DNA of 64,000 bases from IMG/VR virus record IMGVR_UViG_3300021093_000007. One strand, given 5' to 3'. A program made the position numbers and the translations under genes. Positions 1,730 through 61,826 of the stretch are shown in pieces; position 1 is the stretch's first letter, and each line of letters begins with the position of its first letter. The notes under the pieces are model-generated. The model was not told the origin of the DNA and made no database searches. It saw only the letters and a list, made by a program, of their open reading frames with translations. Source of the stretch: a virus.

Positions 1730-3148
1730 GTGTTTGTAGAAATGGCAAGTTTTACTATAGAACCCGATGATATTAGATCTGGTCAAAAAGCTGCAAAAAT
1801 AAGGGCTCTTGCAAAACAGGGCGCAACTCCAGGTGAGAGAAGGGCAGCCCAAAGTAAAACAAAGGGTCCTAGTATGCCAAAAGTAAGGGCAGGTGATAAA
1901 AATATTACGGACATTCATGCTGGATATGAACCATCATTAGCGGAAATCGTTCTTGGTGAAGAAATGTGTGGTAAAGGGCACTATTGGTGCAACACTGATA
2001 GACAGTGTAAAAAGATTCCTTCAGGATTTAAGATTGATGGTCAACCAATGGGGACTAAAAGAACTGAGGTTGGAATTGGTAAACCAGTTGCTGAGCAGAC
2101 TACCTGTAATCATACTAAAAAAGGAAATAACTGTCCTGTTCATGGGACAAAAGATTGTTCGGTTAAAGAAGAGAGTGTAACTATTGAAGATATGTTTGGT
2201 AATAAGTTTGTTGAATTTATTGATTTAATTAAACCACAAGATGTAGTGGATGAGAAAATGGGTTTATGGGATAATATCCATGCTCGCAGAGAAGCAGGAA
2301 AACCACGCAAAAAACCAGGACAAAAAGGTTATCCAAAAACATTAAATGTTGAAAATCATATTGATGTTGCTATGGGTAAAGAATTGGATGATGAGGGGTC
2401 AATGATTCTCAATCAACTCAATCAACTTGAAATGCATTGCAAGAGAATGAGAGAAGTTATCAAAGATCCTAAAATGCAGATTCCTGCATGGGTACAATCC
2501 AAAGTAACTCTTGCAACTGATTATATGGATGCAGTTGCCAATTATATGTCTGCTAAAAATGAAGAGTATGAAATTGATGAGGCAGTAAGACTTCCTTCAG
2601 AATATGGTAATTTGATTGCTGCAATTGTAATGTGGAGAGGTAGATCACAACAACTTACATTATTCTTCCCCCAAGCAAAAATGCCATCTAAAAAAGATGT
2701 TCAGAGAGAAGTCGAAAAGATTTATCCTGGTGGCAAAGTTATTACTTTTGGTTTAACCGATATTGCAAGTAACTACTCCGCAATTGATGCTCCGATTGTT
2801 AGGGTTGGATATTATGGTGGAAATCTTGGTAAACCAGGCCCAAATAAGAATTATGTAAAACCAATGGGAGAAGAAGTTGAAGTTGACGAAGATTGGCAAT
2901 CAGTCAATCGTAAAGATAAAACTGATGGTATGAGTAAAGCAGCAGTAGATGCATATCGCCGTGAAAATCCCAAATCTAAATTAAAAACGGCAGTTACTGA
3001 GAAAAAACCAACTGGTAAAAGAGCAAAACGTCGTTCTTCATTTTGCAGCAGAATGAAGGGCATGAAGTCCAAGTTAACTTCCGCAAAAACTGCAAGAGAC
3101 CCAGATTCAAGAATCAACAGAGCCCTTCGTCGTTGGAACTGTAACTAG
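1730..3148 (+). CDS. modular Lys/Arg-rich hypothetical protein, probable internal head protein processed by gp21 (start GTG 1730 or ATG 1742)
   Basis: 472 aa string of short basic or Cys-containing modules separated by EE/VDE/IDE; lies between gp16 and gp17. Confidence 0.6.
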   Translation: MFVEMASFTIEPDDIRSGQKAAKIRALAKQGATPGERRAAQSKTKGPSMPKVRAGDKNITDIHAGYEPSLAEIVLGEEMCGKGHYWCNTDRQCKKIPSGFKIDGQPMGTKRTEVGIGKPVAEQTTCNHTKKGNNCPVHGTKDCSVKEESVTIEDMFGNKFVEFIDLIKPQDVVDEKMGLWDNIHARREAGKPRKKPGQKGYPKTLNVENHIDVAMGKELDDEGSMILNQLNQLEMHCKRMREVIKDPKMQIPAWVQSKVTLATDYMDAVANYMSAKNEEYEIDEAVRLPSEYGNLIAAIVMWRGRSQQLTLFFPQAKMPSKKDVQREVEKIYPGGKVITFGLTDIASNYSAIDAPIVRVGYYGGNLGKPGPNKNYVKPMGEEVEVDEDWQSVNRKDKTDGMSKAAVDAYRRENPKSKLKTAVTEKKPTGKRAKRRSSFCSRMKGMKSKLTSAKTARDPDSRINRALRRWNCN

Positions 3149-3167
3149 TAAAATTTAATTAATTATT

Positions 3168-4814
3168 ATGGCAGTTGATCATTATCTTGGTAATCCTTTA
3201 TTAAAAAGGGCAAACACACCTCAAGGATTTACCGAAGAACAAATTATAGAGTTTGCCAAATGTATAGACGACCCAGTTTATTTTGCAAAAAATTATATCC
3301 ATATTGTTACCCTGGACTATGGATTGCAGACATTTAATCCATATCCATTCCAGGAAAAAATGCTTGATCGATTTCATAATAATCGATTCAATATTTGCAA
3401 ACTTCCTAGACAGTCTGGTAAGTCTACAATCGTGGTCTCGTATCTTTTACATTATGCAATTTTTAATGATAACGTAAATATTGCAATTCTTGCTAACAAA
3501 GCATCAACTGCAAAAGACTTATTAGACCGCCTTCAAACAGCGTATGAGAACCTTCCTAAGTGGTTACAGCAGGGCGTTCTAACATGGAACAAAGCATCTC
3601 TTGAACTAGAGAACGGTTCTAAGATTATTGCAGCGTCTACATCTGCATCAGCAGTTCGTGGTGGTTCATACAATATCATCTTTCTGGACGAATTTGCGTT
3701 CGTTGCAAACCATATTGCAGACCAATTCTTCAGCTCAGTATACCCAACAATTTCATCAGGTAAAAATACAAAGGTTATAATTGTTTCTACCCCACACGGT
3801 ATGAATCATTTTTATAAACTTTGGCACGATGCTGAGAGGGGTAAAAATGAATATATCCCAACTGAAGTTCATTGGAGTGATGTTCCTGGAAGAGATGATG
3901 CTTGGAAGAAGCAAACTATTGCCAACACATCTGAGCAACAATTTAGAGTTGAGTTTGAATGCGAATTCCTAGGATCTGTTGATACTCTAATTAGTCCAAG
4001 CAAATTAAGGAACTTGGTTTATGAATCCCCAGCAATTAGTAATCAAGGACTTGATGTTTTTGAAGATTGTAAAGAAGAACATAATTACATTATAACTGTT
4101 GATGTTGCCAGAGGTGTTGGTAATGATTACTCAGCATTTACTGTTATTGATATAACTCAATTCCCACATACATTAGTGGCAAAGTATAGGGATAATGAAA
4201 TAAAACCAATGCTATTTCCCAGCATTATTCATGAGGTTGCTAAAAATTATAATGAAGCTTATGTGTTATGTGAAGTAAATGACGTTGGTGACCAAGTTGC
4301 TAGTATTTTACAATATGACTTAGAATATAATAATCTTCTTATGTGCTCAATGAGAGGTAGAGCAGGGCAAATTGTTGGACAAGGATTCTCTGGCAAAAAG
4401 ACTCAACTTGGAGTCAAAATGTCAAAAACTGTCAAAAAAGTTGGTTGCCTTAATCTGAAGACTCTAGTTGAAGAAAGTAAACTTCTTTTTAAAGACTATG
4501 ACATTATTAGTGAATTAACTACTTTTATTCAAAAGTCAAATTCTTTTGAGGCAGAAGATGGTTGTAATGATGACCTAGCAATGTGCTTGGTAATCTATGC
4601 TTGGTTAGTTTTACAAGATTACTTTAAAGAACTTACAGACCAAGATGTAAGAAAAAAATTATATGAAGAACAAAAAAATCAAATTGAACAAGATATGGCA
4701 CCATTTGGATTTATTGTGGATGGGTTAGATTCAAATAGTTTTGTTGATGGTGATGGTGACCGATGGTTTACTGATGAATACGGTGATATGTCTTATATGT
4801 GGGAGTATCAATAA
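3168..4814 (+). CDS. gp17: terminase large subunit gp17
   Basis: Walker A PRQSGKST, Walker B IIFLDEFAF, VDVARG nuclease motif, NDDLAM. Confidence 0.98.
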   Translation: MAVDHYLGNPLLKRANTPQGFTEEQIIEFAKCIDDPVYFAKNYIHIVTLDYGLQTFNPYPFQEKMLDRFHNNRFNICKLPRQSGKSTIVVSYLLHYAIFNDNVNIAILANKASTAKDLLDRLQTAYENLPKWLQQGVLTWNKASLELENGSKIIAASTSASAVRGGSYNIIFLDEFAFVANHIADQFFSSVYPTISSGKNTKVIIVSTPHGMNHFYKLWHDAERGKNEYIPTEVHWSDVPGRDDAWKKQTIANTSEQQFRVEFECEFLGSVDTLISPSKLRNLVYESPAISNQGLDVFEDCKEEHNYIITVDVARGVGNDYSAFTVIDITQFPHTLVAKYRDNEIKPMLFPSIIHEVAKNYNEAYVLCEVNDVGDQVASILQYDLEYNNLLMCSMRGRAGQIVGQGFSGKKTQLGVKMSKTVKKVGCLNLKTLVEESKLLFKDYDIISELTTFIQKSNSFEAEDGCNDDLAMCLVIYAWLVLQDYFKELTDQDVRKKLYEEQKNQIEQDMAPFGFIVDGLDSNSFVDGDGDRWFTDEYGDMSYMWEYQ

Positions 4815-5044
4815 TGGAATTAGACAAGCAGATAAAGCTGAGTCATTTATTGCTTGTAGATAGAAGATGTAGAGTATGTGGAGAGAATAAAAATTTAATT
4901 GATGGATTTTACAGAACTCGTAAAAAAAGGGGGACAGTTGCTTCTTCATATTCTTATGAATGTAAAGATTGCACTGTAAAAAGGATTACTAGTTCTAGAA
5001 AAAATACTATTAAAGTTATGGAATGGGAATATCCAGATTGGTGA
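4814..5044 (+). CDS. small zinc-finger hypothetical protein
   Basis: CRVC...YECKDC Cys pairs; WEYPDW C-terminus; TAATG coupling with gp17. Confidence 0.7.
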   Translation: MELDKQIKLSHLLLVDRRCRVCGENKNLIDGFYRTRKKRGTVASSYSYECKDCTVKRITSSRKNTIKVMEWEYPDW

Positions 5045-5088
5045 TATTTGTTCACCCACAATTTCCCCCATGTAATTACCCATTTTCC

Positions 5089-5094
5089 TAAATA
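5089..5094 (+). promoter_or_regulatory. late promoter for gp18
   Basis: CTAAATA upstream of the AAGGAG RBS of gp18. Confidence 0.65.
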
Positions 5095-5131
5095 TTTTCA
5101 GATAAACTGAGACTTTTAAGGAGAATTATCC

Positions 5132-7927
5132 ATGGCGACTCCTCAATTATCTCCTGGTGTACTGACTAGAGAGGTTGATTTAACCGTAGGAAGAGCTGAC
5201 AATGTATTAGATAACATTGGAGGTATTGCAGGACCCTTTGAACTTGGTCCAGTAAACGAACCAATTACTGTTTCTACTGAACAGGAACTAATTAGCATTT
5301 TTGGTAAACCCCAAACCGCAGACAACCAATACGAGTATTGGATGAGTGCATCATCATACTTATCGTATGGTGGAGTCCTATCTGTTATTAGAACTGATGG
5401 TGCAAACCTTAAGAATGCTAACTGTGGTGTTGGAACAACTAGCGTAACAAATGTAAAAATTAAAAACTTTGATGACTTCAATGCTAATTATAGCAATACA
5501 GCAGCAAACTTTTATTATGCTGCTAAGAACCCAGGTACATGGGCAAATGGTTTGAAGATTTGCTATATTGACGATCTTGGAGACCAAATTCTTGGTATTG
5601 CAACAACTTCTTTGTCGAGCATTGGTGCTCAAGTTGGATATGCAGTAACTGTAGATGTTAGTGGTCAAGTTATTCCTGGCACAGGAACAACATCAGTCTT
5701 CCAAGGTTATTTAAAGGGAGTTATTACTCAAGCGATTGATTCTCCAGAAACAGGTGTCAGTGCTTTAGTTGTAAAAATCCATTCTAGAGTTTCTACTGGT
5801 GGTACAGAACCAGGTAGACAATATAGAACACATTATACACAAAATAGTTCGTTTGCATCTTTCTTAAAAGATCAAAGAGTTACAATTATTGATCCCAATG
5901 GATTAGTTGTCTCACCAACCGATTCAATTTCTGCAGTCGGAATTACTTCCTCCACCGCAATTAATGGTCAACAAGGACAAGCATATGCTGGAGTTGGTGG
6001 AACAACTGCAGGAACTGGATCTGGAGCAACATTTACTATTACCAGAAATAATACTGATGGTAACGTTCTAACTGCAGCAATTGTAAATGCTGGTTTAGGA
6101 TATACTGTTGGCGACACAGTATCAATTGCTGGAACTGCTGTTGGTGGTTACAATTTATCTCAAGGTGTTATTAACAACATTGGACTTACAACTGCTCCTG
6201 TAGTTGCACCAGCATCTAATGGTGTATATCTTGCTGTTGCTGGAGTAAGCACAGTTGGTTCTGGTGTATCCTTCAATGTTTACAGAAATGCTTCTGGTGG
6301 AATTGGAACTGTTACAATGGTCAATCCTGGATTGGGATATGGATCAAATACAGTGGTTACTATTCCTGGAGCATCAATTGGTGGAGTTACTCCTGGAGAT
6401 AATGCAACATTAACAGTTTCTTCTTTAAGAAATGATAAGGTTATTCTCACAGTAACAAATAGCAATTCAAGAGTTGTTATTGCTGGTGTTGATGATTGGT
6501 ACGATTCTCAAACTTTGGGACTCGATAATTCAACAATTTACTGGAGAACAATTGCACCAAAACCAGGAACATCAAACTATGTTGATGAGCGTGGTGGATA
6601 CAATGATGAATTACATCTTGTTGTAGTTGACGATGATGGAACTTTGACAGGAGTTAAAGGCAACATCCTTGAGAAGCATTTATTCTTATCGAAAGCAAAA
6701 GATACTGTATCGGAAGTTAATTCTCCACAAAAAATGTGGTATAAGAATTATCTTGCAAATTATTCAAACTACATTTATGCTGGTGCAAATCAATCAACAC
6801 AAAATGATTCTACCTGGAATACATTTCCAACAGGTATTAACTTCAACTTAGCAGATTCAGCTACAATTTACAACTTGGCAGATCCAAACACGGTATTTAG
6901 TGTTCCATCACTACCATCTCTTATTTGGGACAGAGATTCAAAAGATGCTTGGTTTTCTTCTATCGGTAGAGTTACTTATGATCTCGGAAATGGCAAAAAT
7001 TATACTACTCAAGGCAATTTAAAATCCACCTTAGGTGATATTATGGAATCTTATGAATTATTCAATAATAAAGAAGAAATTGCGGTAGATTACTTAATGA
7101 TGGGTCCTGGATTAGATTCGCTTAGTGATTCTCAAGCAAAAGCAAATAAACTGATTTCTATCGCAGATGGTAGAAAGGACTGTGTTGCAGTACTGTCTCC
7201 ACATAGAGGATCCGTTGTTGATCTATCAAATCCAATTGTTCAAACTAACAATGTTATTGAATTCTTTGGTCCTCTTCAATCTTCATCATATGCAGTTTTT
7301 GATAGTGGATATAAGTACACCTACGACAGATTCAATAACTTATTCCGTTATATTCCTTGCAACCCAGATGTTGCTGGATTAATGGCAAGAACAAATCTGA
7401 TTGCTTATCCATGGTTCTCACCTGCTGGTCAGCAAAGAGGTGTTTTAAAGAATGCTATTAAACTAGCATTTAATCCAAATAAATCTCAAAGAGATTCTTT
7501 ATATTCTGCAAGAGTTAATTCAATTGTCAATCAAACTGGAGCAGGCGTAATTCTTTTTGGAGATAAGACTGCACTAGCTTATGCATCTGCTTTTGATAGA
7601 ATTAACGTTCGTAGATTATTCTTAACAGTTGAGCAAGCTCTGGAGAGAGCTGCTGAAGCACAACTCTTTGAATTTAACGATCAGATTACAAGATCTAATT
7701 TTGTAAACATTGTTGAACCTTACTTACGTGATATTCAAGCTAAGCGAGGAATTTATGATTATCTTGTAATTTGCGATGAAACCAACAACACTCCAGATAT
7801 TATTGATAATAACGAATTTAGAGCTGATATCTTCCTGAAACCAGCTAAATCTATTAACTATATTACTCTAACATTTGTTGCGACCAGAACTGGAGTCAGT
7901 TTTGAAGAAGTCGCTGGTAGAGTTTGA
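5132..7927 (+). CDS. gp18: tail sheath protein gp18 with inserted duplicated beta domain
   Basis: SPGVLTREVDLT N-terminus, WFSPAG, FDRINVRRLF, KPAKSINYITLTFVA. Confidence 0.97.
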   Translation: MATPQLSPGVLTREVDLTVGRADNVLDNIGGIAGPFELGPVNEPITVSTEQELISIFGKPQTADNQYEYWMSASSYLSYGGVLSVIRTDGANLKNANCGVGTTSVTNVKIKNFDDFNANYSNTAANFYYAAKNPGTWANGLKICYIDDLGDQILGIATTSLSSIGAQVGYAVTVDVSGQVIPGTGTTSVFQGYLKGVITQAIDSPETGVSALVVKIHSRVSTGGTEPGRQYRTHYTQNSSFASFLKDQRVTIIDPNGLVVSPTDSISAVGITSSTAINGQQGQAYAGVGGTTAGTGSGATFTITRNNTDGNVLTAAIVNAGLGYTVGDTVSIAGTAVGGYNLSQGVINNIGLTTAPVVAPASNGVYLAVAGVSTVGSGVSFNVYRNASGGIGTVTMVNPGLGYGSNTVVTIPGASIGGVTPGDNATLTVSSLRNDKVILTVTNSNSRVVIAGVDDWYDSQTLGLDNSTIYWRTIAPKPGTSNYVDERGGYNDELHLVVVDDDGTLTGVKGNILEKHLFLSKAKDTVSEVNSPQKMWYKNYLANYSNYIYAGANQSTQNDSTWNTFPTGINFNLADSATIYNLADPNTVFSVPSLPSLIWDRDSKDAWFSSIGRVTYDLGNGKNYTTQGNLKSTLGDIMESYELFNNKEEIAVDYLMMGPGLDSLSDSQAKANKLISIADGRKDCVAVLSPHRGSVVDLSNPIVQTNNVIEFFGPLQSSSYAVFDSGYKYTYDRFNNLFRYIPCNPDVAGLMARTNLIAYPWFSPAGQQRGVLKNAIKLAFNPNKSQRDSLYSARVNSIVNQTGAGVILFGDKTALAYASAFDRINVRRLFLTVEQALERAAEAQLFEFNDQITRSNFVNIVEPYLRDIQAKRGIYDYLVICDETNNTPDIIDNNEFRADIFLKPAKSINYITLTFVATRTGVSFEEVAGRV

Positions 7928-15860: not shown

Positions 15861-16514
15861 ATGAAACTCATCAGAGAAGAGATCGAAAAGGTTGAAGTTA
15901 TCACCGAGAGCATTGGTGGTAAAAAGCAAATGTATATCCAAGGAGTCTTTCTCCAAAGTGAGATGGTTAATCGCAATGGTAGAATGTATCCATTCTCCAT
16001 TATGGAAAGAGAAGTAAAAAGATATACAAATGATTATGTAAAAAAAGGTAGAGCATTAGGTGAACTCGGACACCCTGATGGTCCCACTGTAAATCTCGAC
16101 AGAGTATCCCATAAAATTACTGAACTAAAGCAAGACGGTAATAACTTCGTAGGTAAAGCACAAATTCTGCATACTCCAATGGGTAAAATTGCAGAAGCAC
16201 TTCTTAAAGATGGAGTAACTCTCGGCGTTTCTTCTCGTGGTATTGGATCATTAAGAGAAAATATCAAAGGTGGTTATAAGGAAGTTGGTGAAGACTTCAT
16301 GCTTGCAACTGCAGCAGATATTGTTGCAGATCCATCAGCACCTGATGCTTTTGTTCAGGGAATTATGGAAGGAAAAGAGTGGGTGTGGGATGGTGGAATT
16401 CTCCGTGAGAAGATTGCAAATCAAACCAGACAAAGAATTGAAGATCTTTCTAGAAGAAGAGAACTAGAAGAGCACAAGTTGAATTTATTTAATGACTTTT
16501 TAAATTCACTTTGA
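15861..16514 (+). CDS. gp21: prohead protease gp21
   Basis: NRNGRMYP, ALGELGHP, LGVSSRGIGSL, DIVADPSAPDAFV. Confidence 0.97.
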   Translation: MKLIREEIEKVEVITESIGGKKQMYIQGVFLQSEMVNRNGRMYPFSIMEREVKRYTNDYVKKGRALGELGHPDGPTVNLDRVSHKITELKQDGNNFVGKAQILHTPMGKIAEALLKDGVTLGVSSRGIGSLRENIKGGYKEVGEDFMLATAADIVADPSAPDAFVQGIMEGKEWVWDGGILREKIANQTRQRIEDLSRRRELEEHKLNLFNDFLNSL

Positions 16515-56324: not shown

Positions 56325-56325
56325 T

Positions 56326-56408
56326 GCCCAGTTGGCGGAATTGGTAGACGCGACAGGTTTAGGTCCTGTTATCTTTATGGTGTGTAGGTTCAAGTCCTAT
56401 ACTGGGTA
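56326..56408 (+). tRNA. trnL: tRNA-Leu (anticodon UAG)
   Basis: Acceptor GCCCAGT/ACTGGGT-A; D arm TGGCGGAATTGGTAGACGC; anticodon arm ACAGG-TTTAGGT-CCTGT; long variable arm; T arm GTAGG-TTCAAGT-CCTAT; no encoded CCA. Confidence 0.95.
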
Positions 56409-56434
56409 TCTAAATAAAAAAAACCATTATATAG

Positions 56435-57517
56435 ATGGCACAAAGTAATCCTGGTAATTATACTGCAGATACAATATATCGTCTTTTAAATGAAAAAATC
56501 TCTGATGGTAAAATAAAACTTGTAAAAGACCAATTCCCTACTTTAAAAAATTCTGTAGAGTACGCCAGAATTTTAGTGAGATCTGATAATCGAGTATCAA
56601 CTTTTGAACTAGTTGACGAAGTTTTAAATGATCTTAATATTCCCTTTCGTGAAGATCGAATACGTGGGTCAACATTTAAAGCAATTGTGATTGATAATTA
56701 TTATAAAATTGGCAAGAAAGAAAAAGGCATTAGAATATTTTTTAAATATGCTAATGGTAGAGACTTTATAAACACTTTTATTTGGAACAGTTTACTTCAA
56801 GAAGTTTTTAAAAACCATCCAAGTTTAAAGAGAACTCCTAGAGATAGAACAGAAGTTGATGTTTTAAAAGTTCTTAATGAAAAGATCCAGGAACTTGGCA
56901 ATAATATGCCAGTTACTTTACGTATTAGAAATAAGTATTATTTTAACGTTGCTGGATTTGTTGGTGGAATAGGAACCAGGAAAGCCGACTTTGTAATTGT
57001 GGATTATAGTGGAAATGAGATAGGATTTTTATCTTATAAAAAGGGAGATACTGCCACAGACTTCCAACAGTATGGTGGAATAACAGAACGTGCAGGAACT
57101 GATATAGTCAATCATTCTGAAGTTGAGGATTTTAAAGAAGTCGTTGTCGATAACTGGGACACTTATAAAAAAGATTATGCTTCTGTCTGGAGAGAGATTC
57201 AAGATAATAATTTAAAAAAACAATCTGTATTTGGTAAAGATTTTTCTAGATCATCGGGACATGATAGTGTAGACTTTTTTGTTCAGGGTAGACCAAACTT
57301 TACATTTAATGGTAAAATTGTAAGTTTACGATTTACTACTAAAACAGTTAGAAAAGGTAATCTTACCTCTCTACAAGGTGATTATGAACCAGTTCTTGGT
57401 GCTCGTGGCGGAGAAAGATCGCGTAGAATTAAGATAAAAACAAGGTCTATATATGGTGTGCGTGGCGGTATTTGGACTCGCGGATACATCACAAAACGTA
57501 GAGACAAGGAAATTTGA
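56435..57517 (+). CDS. hypothetical protein, possible PD-(D/E)XK-variant nuclease
   Basis: KADFVIV...FLSYKKG...FQQYGGIT; basic C-terminus; TAAATA 56411-16 upstream. Confidence 0.5.
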   Translation: MAQSNPGNYTADTIYRLLNEKISDGKIKLVKDQFPTLKNSVEYARILVRSDNRVSTFELVDEVLNDLNIPFREDRIRGSTFKAIVIDNYYKIGKKEKGIRIFFKYANGRDFINTFIWNSLLQEVFKNHPSLKRTPRDRTEVDVLKVLNEKIQELGNNMPVTLRIRNKYYFNVAGFVGGIGTRKADFVIVDYSGNEIGFLSYKKGDTATDFQQYGGITERAGTDIVNHSEVEDFKEVVVDNWDTYKKDYASVWREIQDNNLKKQSVFGKDFSRSSGHDSVDFFVQGRPNFTFNGKIVSLRFTTKTVRKGNLTSLQGDYEPVLGARGGERSRRIKIKTRSIYGVRGGIWTRGYITKRRDKEI

Positions 57518-57547
57518 TTTAATAAATATTTGTATATCAAAACAATT

Positions 57548-58159
57548 ATGAAAACATACTCTCAGTTTGTAAAAGAGTCTAAGTCTCTTGCCTCTATTCA
57601 TGGCAGGAGATTGGGTCTTGTGCCAGATGGGCATGGTGGTTATCATGATAAAAATACTGGAGAATTTGTCGCTAAAAACGTTGCTGGACGATTAAAGTTT
57701 TATAATCAAAATCAAATTGTTGGTGGTCAAGACCCCGCTCAAGTTAGAACAGCAGCAAATCAACGACCAGTTGCCACACAAAATCCAAGTTTTAGGAAGA
57801 AGAACACTGTCAAAATTAATCCCACAGAATCTATTGATAGGGATCAAGAACGTAAACTTAGAGAGCAGTATATTGCTGGAGAAATTTTTAGAGAAGATAC
57901 ATTTGTCCAGAATATAAAAACTGGAATGATTGGTAAAATTGTTCGGAGAGGAACCAATCATTTAATCTGTGTTACTGAAGATGAGCAAATGTTTAAGTCT
58001 TGGATTCGGGATGTAAAAGAATGGACTGAAGTATCTGGAGTTCCTGCAACTCAGAGAGAAGTTGGAACGGATGCCTTTAGAGAATATGTTATGAGAATGT
58101 CCAATACAAAGAAAATTAGAAATTTCATAAATAAGTATAAGGTAAAAAATAAGCAGTAA
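57548..58159 (+). CDS. hypothetical protein matching the N- and C-terminal parts of the cyanophage 'cytidyltransferase' but lacking its catalytic domain
   Basis: LGLVPDGHGGY..GEFVAK...LKFYN joined via a short linker to LREQYIAGEIF...IVRRGTNHLICVTED..MFKSWI; no GRFNPPTxGH motif; TAAATA 57523-28. Confidence 0.55.
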   Translation: MKTYSQFVKESKSLASIHGRRLGLVPDGHGGYHDKNTGEFVAKNVAGRLKFYNQNQIVGGQDPAQVRTAANQRPVATQNPSFRKKNTVKINPTESIDRDQERKLREQYIAGEIFREDTFVQNIKTGMIGKIVRRGTNHLICVTEDEQMFKSWIRDVKEWTEVSGVPATQREVGTDAFREYVMRMSNTKKIRNFINKYKVKNKQ

Positions 58160-58171
58160 CTAATTAGAGTA

Positions 58172-60607
58172 ATGGCAAATTTACAGCATATCGTCACCGA
58201 TCTTTATCAAGTTTACTTGACTGAAATGGAGGCGCAAATTAAACCTCAATTAGGAAAGAAATCAGAATCTTCCAGTGGATCTGGCGGTGATAAAAAGTCT
58301 GTTGGTGGTGGCGGGGAAGATAATATTAAAAAGCAAGCAAGACAACTTGCGTATGACACAAGATATAAAGCAAGAAGAGAAGGTATTCCTCTAGAGAGAG
58401 CATTCACCCAATCACTCCAAAACTCTAAGGCTTCTGCTCCTGTTAAGGATGCTGCAAAAGCAATGCTTTTTAGTGGCGGTGTAAGGGAAGAAATTGATAT
58501 TGATGAATCAGAAGGTAAGGAAAAAGTTTTAGTAACTCCAGTAAAAGGATATGGAAAACCATATCGTAGATATGTAACTAGAGCTAAAAAACACCAGTTA
58601 AGATCGAATCCTCAGATTCAATCTGTAACTCCAACTTCATATGGAACTCCTTATGAAGGTGAGCGCACACAAGGAAAGCAAACCTCCGCTGCACTACAGT
58701 CCAAACCTAAAAATAAAAAGTCTGGTTCAAAACCAGATTTTCTTGATTTGGATAAAGATGGCAACAAAAAAGAACCAATGAAGAAGGCTTTAAAAGATAA
58801 AAAGAAAGTTGAAGAAGCAAATGATGGTAATCTTGCAAACAACTATCCTCCATATGATAAAGTAACCAGAGGAGATGTAATTGCTGGTGCAACTGGTAAA
58901 GACCAGATGGGTGGTAAGAAAAAGAAAAAAGGAATTGAAGAAGGATATTCTGATTGGAGAGAAGATCTTTGTGAAGTAATTAATAACTCCACTAATAAGG
59001 ACGTTAAAAAAATTACAGAGAAAAGTGTAAGTAATACAATTGTCATTAATCCAGATCTTAAAGAAGAGGTTATTCTGGAAGCAGTTGATGTTGCATCGGA
59101 GTATTTTTATCAAGAAGGTTTAAATTCTACTGGAGTAGATATTTTAATTGAAGAACTTGGTATTGAAGATTTTGTTCAATTTGTATTTGAATTAACCGAA
59201 GAGTATAATTTAACTGAAGCAAGAGCAGGTGGAGCAAGGGTAGAACCAAAAACAAAAGCGGGCAAATCTGTAGGTTCTCTTAAAGGTGGTGCAAAAACTG
59301 CTGCTATTTCTAGACTTCGCAAAGAAAAGCAGGCAAGAAGAGATGCTGAATCAAAAACATCTGCTTCAAAACCATCTGGAATGACAGCAGCACTTAAAAG
59401 ACAATCTGCCGTTGCAAATGCTAAAAAGCAGCAACCTGCTAAGAAACCATTAAAAGATAGAATTGCAAAGGGTGTTCTTGGTGCTGTTAAAGCATACCAG
59501 CAAGGCATGGAGCGTCATAGAGCAGCAACTGCAACTGCTGGTAAGGTAGTGAAGGTAGCAGCAAAAGGAGCATCTGAATTTGGTAAAGGTGTTGCTTCTG
59601 GTGTAAAGGCAACTGGAAAAGTTGCAAGAGATGTTCATAAGGTTCTTAAAAATTCTTATGAAATGGATGAGGCAGTTTATGGTGGTGAAAAGAAAGAACC
59701 AGAAGACAACAGAATGGTAGTTACTGCTGCAGATAAAAAAGGAAATACCAAAGCATATCAAAATTATAAAGCAGGTCATCCCGCATATAAGGCAGCTGCA
59801 CATCTACAAAATTCTTCTTTTGAACCAGAAGGTGATAGTGTTGATGAAGGTCTTGCACAAGCACGTAAAAATGTGGGTGCGAGCAAGTGTTGGCCTGGTA
59901 AAGTTGCCAAAGGAACAAAAATGAAGAATGGTCGTGAAGTTCCAAATTGTGTTGATGAAGGTCTTGCACAAGCACGTAAAAATGTGGGTGCGAGCAAGTG
60001 TTGGCCTGGTAAAGTTGCCAAAGGAACAAAAATGAAGAATGGTCGTGAAGTTCCAAATTGTGTAGATGAAAAAGCAAGAGAACCTTATGCAATTGGTACG
60101 GCAGCAGCAATGAATTCAACTGGTGATACTCCACCACTGAAAAAGTCCACTATTAAAAAAGCACATAAGATTGCTAAAAAAATTGAAGCAACAGAAGCAG
60201 TAGATCCTCAATCATCTTTATCACCAAAACAAAAAGATACTGAACAGCAGCAAACTTTGAATGCTAAAGCAAAGTTAGAAAAAATTCTAGCAACACGCAA
60301 GGGTGCATATAGAGAAGAAACTGAACTTGATGAATTGAATAGAGTTGAAAGGGAAACTGGCATTAACACTAAGACTGGTAGACCTACTCAAACTGGTGGT
60401 GCCAAAGATGACAAGGCATTTACTCATGTGAAAAGAATGATACGTGGAATGGAAGGAACTCCAGCTGGTCAACGTAAAAAAGTTCCTGGTAAGAAACCAC
60501 CTGCTGCTGGTGAATTTGGCGGTCCAAGATCTCCTGCACAAAAAGTAGCAAAGCGTCGTGCTGATGCTCAGAGGGCACAGGACCTGATGCATTCTCCAAG
60601 AGACTGA
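58172..60607 (+). CDS. large modular Lys/Arg-rich hypothetical protein, probable gp21-processed internal head polyprotein
   Basis: 811 aa of basic modules separated by LTE/IDE/VEE/MDE/VDE/LDE; EF-hand-like DLDKDGN; TAAATA 58128-33 upstream. Confidence 0.6.
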   Translation: MANLQHIVTDLYQVYLTEMEAQIKPQLGKKSESSSGSGGDKKSVGGGGEDNIKKQARQLAYDTRYKARREGIPLERAFTQSLQNSKASAPVKDAAKAMLFSGGVREEIDIDESEGKEKVLVTPVKGYGKPYRRYVTRAKKHQLRSNPQIQSVTPTSYGTPYEGERTQGKQTSAALQSKPKNKKSGSKPDFLDLDKDGNKKEPMKKALKDKKKVEEANDGNLANNYPPYDKVTRGDVIAGATGKDQMGGKKKKKGIEEGYSDWREDLCEVINNSTNKDVKKITEKSVSNTIVINPDLKEEVILEAVDVASEYFYQEGLNSTGVDILIEELGIEDFVQFVFELTEEYNLTEARAGGARVEPKTKAGKSVGSLKGGAKTAAISRLRKEKQARRDAESKTSASKPSGMTAALKRQSAVANAKKQQPAKKPLKDRIAKGVLGAVKAYQQGMERHRAATATAGKVVKVAAKGASEFGKGVASGVKATGKVARDVHKVLKNSYEMDEAVYGGEKKEPEDNRMVVTAADKKGNTKAYQNYKAGHPAYKAAAHLQNSSFEPEGDSVDEGLAQARKNVGASKCWPGKVAKGTKMKNGREVPNCVDEGLAQARKNVGASKCWPGKVAKGTKMKNGREVPNCVDEKAREPYAIGTAAAMNSTGDTPPLKKSTIKKAHKIAKKIEATEAVDPQSSLSPKQKDTEQQQTLNAKAKLEKILATRKGAYREETELDELNRVERETGINTKTGRPTQTGGAKDDKAFTHVKRMIRGMEGTPAGQRKKVPGKKPPAAGEFGGPRSPAQKVAKRRADAQRAQDLMHSPRD
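59838..60063 (+). repeat. perfect 111-bp tandem duplication (two copies of a 37-aa module)
   Basis: GTGTTGATGAAGGTCTTGCACAAGC... at 59838 and 59949; encodes VDEGLAQARKNVGASKCWPGKVAKGTKMKNGREVPNC twice. Confidence 0.97.
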
Positions 60608-61055: not shown

Positions 61056-61826
61056 ATGGCACTCTGGGGAAATAATGACGCTAAGTTTTCAGGGGGAACA
61101 GTCTCTCTGAATTACGCTACTCGTGTTGTTACTGGTTCGGGAACTACATTTGGTCAAGTTGGTGCTGCTGCCACTGGGGATGTAATTAGATTTGGTAGTA
61201 GAACTGATAGCACTTATGTTGGCGATGCTGTAATTCTTTCAATTACTAATGGTACTACATTATCAATTGCATCAACTGCTGGTTTAAGTGGTGCAGCAAT
61301 CTCTGGATTGGCATTTGATATTAGTGAACTGCCAAAATATACCGTTATTGATAGCAATTATACTCAATATAATGTTCAGAGTAACTCTGCAGAGACTACA
61401 GTTGTTGTTCAAACAAGCGTTGCCGCTACTGCTGCTGTTGGTGTAGCAACTGTTGCAATCGCATCAACTTCTGGAATTATCGCTGGAAATACTTTTGTAA
61501 GTGGTAGTGTTTCAAAAGTAATTGTTTCAATTGCTTCTACAACAGTCTCCTTCGGTTCAACCATTGCAAGTTCTCTTGCTTCTGGTGCTGCTGTAAATAT
61601 CACCAGATCAAGTGGCACTTATGGCAAGAGTGTTTATGGTGTTGCCGCTGGTGGAATGCAAGGATCTGCAGCAACTGCTTATGAATTAACTCATGCTGGA
61701 TGGGTTGGTGTTACCACCTATGTTGATCAGCACGGCAATCTTAGAGTTAAAAAAGAAACTTTAGTTGCAATGTCTGGTATTACAACTGGTAATACTCCAA
61801 TCTATGATGGCAATCCACTTGCATGA
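61056..61826 (+). CDS. probable virion structural protein (Ala/Gly/Ser/Thr-rich)
   Basis: MALWGNND...HAGWVGVTTYVDQHGNLRVKKETLVAMS; full TATAAATA late promoter at 61015-22. Confidence 0.75.
   Translation: MALWGNNDAKFSGGTVSLNYATRVVTGSGTTFGQVGAAATGDVIRFGSRTDSTYVGDAVILSITNGTTLSIASTAGLSGAAISGLAFDISELPKYTVIDSNYTQYNVQSNSAETTVVVQTSVAATAAVGVATVAIASTSGIIAGNTFVSGSVSKVIVSIASTTVSFGSTIASSLASGAAVNITRSSGTYGKSVYGVAAGGMQGSAATAYELTHAGWVGVTTYVDQHGNLRVKKETLVAMSGITTGNTPIYDGNPLA

Follow-up and report, generated by a model that had tools for sequence, protein, structure and literature searches.

The 64,000-nucleotide (nt) window analysed here, one strand of IMG/VR virus record IMGVR_UViG_3300021093_000007 read 5' to 3', derives from a T4-like cyanomyovirus, with the portal protein gp20, the prohead protease gp21, the scaffold protein gp22 and the major head protein gp23 all present. 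On its plus strand, positions 58172-60607 are occupied by an open reading frame (ORF), orf811, which encodes a modular protein of 811 amino acids (aa) with more than 800 metagenomic homologues, and which we treat as a candidate head-cargo polyprotein. A first-pass annotation had described this protein as a chain of short, mostly basic modules joined at eleven x-x-Glu motifs, one module being perfectly duplicated over 111 nt; the ORF, the duplication and all eleven motifs (E18, E112, E215, E257, E303, E349, E500, E559, E596, E633 and E721) proved to be real. The protein is rich in Lys (112 residues), Ala (90), Gly (75) and Glu (63), and its parts are as follows, an arrow (↓) marking each predicted cut.

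58172-58225, plus strand: aa 1-18, candidate capsid-targeting propeptide, predicted to be helical, ending YQVYLTE↓M and resembling YQEFIAE↓ of T4 IPII/IPIII
58226-58507, plus strand: aa 19-112, with a confident helical island at aa 50-100 (predicted local distance difference test score, pLDDT, about 80), ending IDIDE↓
58508-58942, plus strand: aa 113-257, a small beta/alpha island, a D-x-D-x-D-G stretch and a Lys-rich linker, ending GIEE↓
58943-59218, plus strand: aa 258-349, acidic helical block of net charge -16, starting GYSDWREDL and ending NLTE↓A
59219-59671, plus strand: aa 350-500, strongly basic Ala/Lys/Gly-rich block of net charge +25, ending YEMDE↓A
59672-59848, plus strand: aa 501-559, AVYGG / TVTAADKKGNT module, pLDDT about 80, ending SVDE↓
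59838-60070, plus strand: 37-aa Cys-Trp hairpin module in two copies (aa 560-596 and 597-633), a 111-nt array of 2.1 copies
60071-60334, plus strand: aa 634-721, PYAIG module and helical linker, ending TELDE↓
60335-60604, plus strand: aa 722-811, basic C-terminal module starting LNRVERETG, matched by S-SCSM1 ORF92 (E=3.7e-7)

Predicted cutting at the nine boundary sites yields about ten pieces of 18 to 151 aa (2-16 kDa), the uncut chain being about 90 kDa. Nine of these, at 4-16 kDa, have the size of T4 internal proteins, and the short peptides initially envisaged as products are not what these joints predict. The net charges of the predicted pieces (+3, +16, -16, +25, -2, +5, +5, +4 and +12) uphold the description of the modules as mostly basic, with one strongly acidic member. 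An AlphaFold model built from 40 sequences is mostly disordered (mean pLDDT 51), with ordered islands at aa 50-100, 115-155 and 510-545. Each Cys-Trp unit is predicted to form a beta-hairpin, and of the nine boundary sites all but two lie within linkers of low confidence or border on them, the exceptions being E18 and E721, which are placed in predicted helices. Sequence searches with orf811 assigned no function: a Pfam scan gave no family, even at E<=1, a profile search of the PDB gave no relative, and the PHROG and Pfam scans taken together returned unknown-function families only, with no homology to IPI, IPII, IPIII or Alt. Nor was there homology to the gp22, gp67 or gp68 families; orf811 has no match to phrog_237, which among window genes is matched by gp22 only. 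A Foldseek search against BFVD returned uncharacterised cyanophage proteins only, at template-modelling (TM) scores of about 0.1, and was set aside as uninformative on the fold because such matches reflect sequence, not fold.

The joints between modules are where the case for processing begins. The protease gp21 recognises an L/I-x-E motif, and T4 core proteins are cut into several fragments (PMC9026906). In T4, an Asp in place of the P1 Glu prevents processing. There are 19 [LIVM]-x-E motifs in orf811 against 10.4 in shuffled sequences (p=0.005), and its z-score of 3.0 is the second highest of the 58 window genes, between those of gp22 (4.0) and gp21 (2.9); in a set of 119 homologues of orf811 the motifs number 1.76 times expectation, where the background value is 1.14. 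The acidic block at aa 258-349 carries nine of the 19 motifs (4.2 expected). Conservation is a stronger signal than the count. Among homologues below 65% identity, and with a Glu taken as conserved when kept in at least 90% of them, 11 of 16 conserved Glu residues stand in [LIVM]-x-E, as against 7 of 45 variable ones (Fisher p=1.6e-4). With the acidic block excluded, 7/12 conserved Glu and 2/34 of the others are so placed (p=4e-4).

Seven sites (E18, E112, E257, E349, E500, E559 and E721) are conserved in a particular manner, with P3 mostly aliphatic and P2 freely varying, the share of homologues with a P1 Glu being 84-100% overall and 98-100% at all sites but one. Site 18 reads L/V/M-x-E in 41 of 41 aligned homologues and site 349 reads L/I/V-x-E↓A in 42 of 43; the P1 Glu is found in 43/43 homologues at site 112 (P3 mostly I or L), in 42/42 at site 500 and in 43/43 at site 721, where all 43 have L, V, I or M as P3. 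The initial proposal that all eleven motifs are gp21 cut sites is therefore best restricted to the seven or eight conserved ones, as E215 (KVEE) lies within a lineage-specific insert in aa 113-257 and is kept in 12% of homologues, and CVDE (E633) reads V-P-E or V-P-K in 39 of 41 aligned homologues. The motif also travels with the modules: [LIVM]-x-E precedes the module starts AVYGG, xFSNWR, ARAGG and LNRYEKETG in dozens of otherwise unrelated contexts, including 28 different sequence contexts for AVYGG. These patterns support the presence of conserved, putative T4-protease-type sites at the module borders of orf811.

Relatives and neighbourhood tie orf811 to the virus particle. A conserved gene order, in which a cytidylyltransferase (T4-GC190) is followed by a member of the orf811 family and, further downstream, by a primase, is found in P-SSM2, S-T4, S-SM1 and S-SCSM1; cultured carriers of the family include S-SCSM1 (ORF92), S-T4 (gp136) and P-SSM2 (gp195). 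In S-SCSM1, mass spectrometry (MS) of CsCl-purified particles identified ORFs 89, 90, 91 (NMNAT), 92, 93, 95 and 97 as virion proteins, and ORF92, encoded between the NMNAT and primase genes, is the positional counterpart of orf811. The two proteins also share modules, the acidic block being homologous to ORF92 (hhalign 99.6%, E=2e-23; module hidden Markov model (HMM), E=1e-17) and the C-terminal module matching it as listed above, and the TVTAADKKGNT module of aa 501-559 matches a further virion protein, S-SCSM1 ORF89 (E=1.9e-6). The virion association of orf811 is drawn from the detection of ORF92 and from two adjoining homologues of virion proteins, orf209 (ORF91) and orf256 (ORF95). In S-SM1, GC190, GC1453, GC1454 and GC1455 belong to the same region as the orf811 neighbourhood; GC190 was reported as newly detected in the virion, and Table S8 lists GC1453, GC1454, GC1455 and GC119, which map to the same regions, as virion proteins (PMC3037559). 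By homology and neighbourhood alike, the homologues of orf811 fall within a family of modular cyanophage virion proteins (S-SCSM1 ORF92/T4-GC191/phrog_3477), and a description of orf811 as a late, virion-associated, modular protein is indirectly supported.

The family is mosaic. T4-GC191 of P-SSM2 carries modules 2-4 of orf811 (E=2.6e-37), among them aa 19-112 (E=9e-25) and aa 113-257, the D-rich part of which also matches S-SM1 GC1454 (E=1.7e-5). Gene 122 of ACG-2014f, located between gp16 and gp17, has the acidic and the basic blocks (aa 350-500, E=4.5e-21), S-SCSM1 ORF89, ORF92 and S-SM1 GC1454 each hold other orf811 modules, and relatives bear added DUF3008 or DUF6321 units. Another arrangement is found on a 172-kb cyanophage contig (L059, IMGVR_UViG_3300020416_000001), where in the same neighbourhood three genes at positions 2000-6008 stand in the place of one: a 651-aa gene with the Cys-Trp module (E=8e-14), a 147-aa gene with the D-rich module (E=1.7e-9) and a 134-aa gene (5604-6008) which reads MKSFKEYITE↓LNRYEKETG from a true gene start two codons past a stop. 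An HMM of aa 722-811 aligns its first position to residue 11 of this 134-aa protein (E=5e-7), so that the residue after E721 corresponds to the position at which the mature protein is predicted to begin once a canonical targeting peptide is removed. Many other apparent gene starts of this propeptide-plus-module kind were discarded as internal methionines of longer ORFs.

Closer to the window, module content varies within a single cluster. Tandem Repeats Finder places the array at 59838-60070 (period 111, 2.1 copies, 99% matches); both full 111-nt copies are identical, each encoding the same 37 aa, and they are followed by the initial 11 nt of a third copy, GTGTAGATGAA, one of them mismatched. 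Homologue comparison confines the duplication to the window lineage. The 90% cluster of the window holds three forms, of 811 aa (13 contigs), of 774 aa with a single Cys-Trp copy, and of 741 aa with a single copy plus a 39-aa deletion from E633 to E672. In a contig with the single-copy module (L007, IMGVR_UViG_3300017788_000221) an exact 11-nt direct repeat, GTGTTGATGAA, is present at both borders. The duplication is a recent event driven by short flanking repeats, and the copy number is polymorphic in populations. It had been argued that the unit of duplication equals the cleavage product; the register does fit the module, but the 11-nt flanking repeats suffice to set that register with the V-D-E sites, and the appeal to phase fails because a tandem repeat has no fixed phase. 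The close relative P0133/L007 lacks 39 aa (634-672) at the equivalent of window 60071-60187, and the Glu residues of CVDE and KKIE mark the exact limits of the gap. Only 4-nt microhomology, TGAA, is seen at the junction; it is another indel of module size with a Glu codon at either end. The suggestion that modules are gained and lost like cassettes is supported by these one- and two-copy alleles, by the 39-aa deletion and by the other combinations met in other cyanophage virion proteins.

The genes and signals around orf811, together with the presumed processing enzyme, are:

15861-16514, plus strand: gp21 prohead protease, presumed processing enzyme (phrog_207, E=2e-82; T4 gp21 structure 5JBL, E=3e-27)
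56435-57517: orf360, 360 aa, phrog_13937, function unassigned, with a targeting-like N-terminus ..TIYRLLNE↓K and CTAAATA 25 nt upstream
57521-57528: NATAAATA motif, 26 nt upstream of orf209
57548-58159, plus strand: orf209, the upstream neighbour, 203 aa from ATG 57548, a GC190 form without the enzyme domain
58126-58133, plus strand: late-promoter-like motif CATAAATA, fitting NATAAATA, 45 nt before the orf811 start
61056-61826: orf256, 256 aa, Ala/Ser/Thr/Gly-rich, with TATAAATA 41 nt upstream

Immediately upstream, orf209 (also listed as a TTG ORF from 57530) keeps the N-terminal region and the C-terminal domain of GC190, a core virion protein of cyanophages (cytidylyltransferase/NMNAT), and its ends match S-SCSM1 ORF91 (E=4e-38 and 1e-16) as well as S-SM1 GC190. 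In T4 the internal proteins bear propeptides of 10-19 residues, in which positions 4 and 7 serve targeting and positions 8 and 10 serve processing (PMC9026906). The N-terminus of orf209, MKTYSQFVKE↓S, compares with MKTYQEFIAE of IPII/IPIII in the T4 record: both targeting positions and the processing Glu 10 are kept, with Val for Ile at position 8. A targeting-peptide scan of the 64-kb window and the related loci found orf209 to be the sole window ORF fitting the strict T4 targeting pattern; in about 25 related loci the gene upstream likewise begins with this pattern. The N-terminus of orf811 itself (..LYQVYLTE↓M) bears a looser but conserved likeness to the T4 signal, and as a sequence it has the form of a T4-type internal-protein propeptide, 10-19 residues long with an L/I-x-Glu end. 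The targeting peptide on orf209 may be the reason NMNAT-like proteins recur in cyanophage virion proteomes; this recurrence is all that the S-SCSM1 and S-CREM2 papers remark upon, and a literature search found no paper proposing a processing or modular-cargo role for the orf811 family.

Expression of both genes late in infection is suggested by their promoter motifs, which fit the published late-promoter consensus NATAAATA (PMC2984593); motifs of the same type as CATAAATA precede gp20 and gp22. Exact TATAAATA is rare in the window. ATAAATA occurs 18 times in the window against 31 expected (15 copies on the plus strand, 3 on the minus), a depletion that looks like selection against stray late promoters; 8 of the 15 plus-strand copies are followed within 80 nt by a start codon, and of the minus-strand copies one (15355) lies just before the minus-strand operon. 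The CTAAATA heptamer, found before orf360, gp18 and gp3, has no published consensus tied to it and is given little weight.

Several further observations concern this neighbourhood. The window gp21 contains 10 L/I-x-E motifs where 3.3 would be expected, as would suit a protease that processes itself in the way the T4 enzyme does. Downstream, orf256 is homologous to S-SCSM1 ORF95, a virion protein annotated as a tail fibre (E=3e-34), the window copy having an extra central stretch. A search of orf360 against the S-SCSM1 virion protein ORF90 gave no significant match; since it lies only 12 nt from the next gene, orf360 may be a third packaged protein. A tRNA-Leu gene (anticodon TAG, 56325-56410) lies between an Asp/Arg-hydroxylase-like gene and orf360, and S-SCSM1 has a tRNA-Ala at the equivalent place within its virion-protein cluster. 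No T4 internal proteins were found in the window.

The explanation that we favour, with modest conviction, is that orf811 encodes a late, head-internal cargo polyprotein of this T4-like cyanophage that is cut by gp21. Its 18-residue N-terminus would act as a T4-like capsid-targeting sequence, bringing the precursor into the prohead scaffolding core, where gp21 would cut after Glu at about seven aliphatic-x-Glu joints, the conserved ones named above, and in the window lineage possibly at the V-D-E sites E596 and E633 as well. The acidic helical block, with its nine further sites, would be shredded like a scaffold, and the basic 4-16 kDa pieces would stay with the head DNA in the manner of T4 internal proteins and may enter the host. 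The new N-termini predicted from these cuts are M19, S113, G258, A350, A501, G560, G597, K634 and L722. We infer the head rather than the tail as the site, and each cleavage, like the fate and function of the pieces, is predicted. The original suggestion that the protein is packaged and cut by gp21 is thus partly sustained: for packaging there is indirect evidence (the MS-detected counterpart, the signal on the neighbour, the late motifs and the L059 gene), and the cuts are foreseen from the sites themselves.

A number of findings weigh against this explanation. The loose N-terminal pattern that orf811 fits is unspecific, being shared by 13 of 218 ORFs including a UvsX-like gene, for which reason it was replaced by the strict T4 pattern. 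Outside aa 258-349 the number of [LIVM]-x-E motifs, 10 against 7.2 expected, is at chance level (p=0.16), and three of the eleven motifs listed at first are without conservation. Virion MS separates neither head from tail nor cargo from a sticky, abundant late protein. Virion protein lists for S-SM1, S-PM2 and Syn9 do not include the orf811 family, and T4-GC191 is absent from the accessible part of Table S8. Similarity to S-SM1 GC1454 is confined to one short module with a short, weak hhalign match, on account of which GC1454 was rejected as an orthologue; BLASTP of orf811 against S-SM1 GC1454, GC1455 and GC119 gave nothing significant, the Cys-Trp module in GC119 being a marginal match (E=0.011). 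Finally, no cleavage product is on record for orf811 or any homologue.

This last point, together with the chance-level count outside the acidic block, favours a first alternative, in which orf811 is a virion protein in one piece that loses at most an N-terminal peptide. The motifs would then cap helices or belong to the linkers of a long and flexible protein that binds DNA or resembles a scaffold. The placement of E18 and E721 inside predicted helices would agree with this, and in SPN3US most head proteins are uncut despite a related protease (PMC10052503). Such a view does not readily accommodate glutamates that are conserved, with free P2, in otherwise variable linkers, nor the recurrence of the same module starts after [LIVM]-x-E in many contexts, nor the L059 gene that begins one module exactly behind a canonical targeting peptide; the overall motif excess, moreover, matches those of gp22 and gp21. 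We regard it as unlikely, though the likeliest of the alternatives.

The acidic block raises the question of a second alternative, that orf811 is an extra prohead scaffold or core protein replacing gp67/gp68, which is cut up and mostly expelled before DNA packaging and so is an assembly aid rather than cargo. Cyanomyoviruses have no recognisable homologues of T4 gp67 and gp68 (PMC2984593), and T4 gp22, gp67 and gp68 are cut into several fragments (PMC9026906). The resemblance extends to many L/I-x-E sites, an acidic helical segment dense in them, predicted late expression alongside the head genes, and an overall site count that, like that of the window gp22, is raised, though in orf811 the acidic block carries the excess. 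The omission of the orf811 family from several virion proteomes, as far as the accessible lists go, would also fit. However, mature virions of S-SCSM1, purified on CsCl, did contain the counterpart of orf811, and the family is partly dispensable, with modules that come and go between close strains. Most of the mass of orf811, furthermore, is strongly basic, the opposite of a T4 scaffold and closer to DNA-associated internal proteins, and there is no homology to the core proteins, of which it could be an analogue rather than a member. We therefore hold this alternative to be improbable.

Less probable still is a place outside the head, with orf811 either associated with the tail, baseplate or fibres or binding DNA as an abundant late protein and adhering to particles in the course of purification. 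Virion MS gives no location, the downstream orf256 is homologous to a protein annotated as a tail fibre, and a Lys-rich, disordered protein may well be sticky. Against this, orf811 adjoins, and is late-promoted with, a gene bearing the strict T4 capsid-targeting peptide; one of its modules sits behind such a peptide in L059; and the ACG-2014f relative lies between gp16 and gp17 in a head/packaging block. The last alternative is a multi-core precursor of ribosomally synthesised and post-translationally modified peptides (RiPPs), in which the phage halogenase, oxygenases or radical-SAM enzymes would act on the Cys/Trp modules, the products being set free as bioactive peptides. The first-pass annotation had pointed to the layout and, as speculation, to these enzymes; the likeness is superficial and consists of protease-type joints that recur and a 37-aa Cys-Trp module that is duplicated. 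This alternative is scarcely credible, given ten unrelated module sequences rather than a leader with related, repeated variable cores, a duplicated module that is a conserved predicted beta-hairpin present in virion proteins of other cyanophages (e.g., S-SM1 GC119) and whose duplication is a polymorphism explained by 11-nt repeats, and immediate neighbours that are a GC190-type virion protein, a 360-aa protein, small ORFs and a fibre-like virion protein, with no adjacent maturase or recognition-element gene and the enzyme islands 2 to 40 kb away.

To return to the cargo polyprotein, its closest precedent would be the T4 internal proteins IPI, IPII, IPIII and Alt. These too are late basic proteins with a short N-terminal peptide ending in aliphatic-x-Glu, a homologous gp21 is encoded in the same genome as orf811, and in both cases a diverse, fast-changing cargo, putative for orf811, stands behind a conserved signal. 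They differ from orf811 in sharing no homology with it and in being single 8-20 kDa products released by one or two cuts, whereas orf811 strings about ten modules into 811 aa, and every joint between them is a candidate cut predicted from sequence. The ejection and inner-body proteins of the phiKZ-like giant phages (phiKZ, 201phi2-1 and SPN3US) offer a second comparison, as these head-internal proteins, with many paralogues, are cut after Glu at a three-residue motif, often at several sites, by a distant gp21 relative (gp175/gp245). Their motif, however, is S/A-x-E, the cuts mainly remove long N-terminal propeptides rather than divide a string of modules, and they belong to another lineage with no sequence similarity to orf811. 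True homologues at the level of modules, in the same neighbourhood, are S-SCSM1 ORF92 and ORF89, P-SSM2 T4-GC191, ACG-2014f gene 122 (T4-GC119-like) and PHROGs 3477, 22379 and 28131. Two of these are proven virion proteins, each has its own subset and order of modules, and they are annotated only as hypothetical or virion proteins.

A further idea, which we put forward tentatively and think rather doubtful, is that the protease joints double as recombination joints. Short repeats at the V-D-E and x-x-E codons would let modules duplicate, delete, split off behind targeting peptides of their own and move between genes, such that heads carry a combinatorial cargo of small basic proteins cut from polyprotein precursors. 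If so, the packaged and possibly injected cargo would evolve like exon shuffling and would vary between co-existing strains.

T4-like cyanophages are among the most abundant viruses of the sea. If the cargo explanation of orf811 is correct, cyanophages would gain an internal-protein system of their own. Together with the targeting peptide on its NMNAT-type neighbour, this would explain how an enzyme that recurs in virion proteomes comes to be packaged. It would also represent a natural, modular and cuttable delivery vehicle, the content of which varies between closely related strains.

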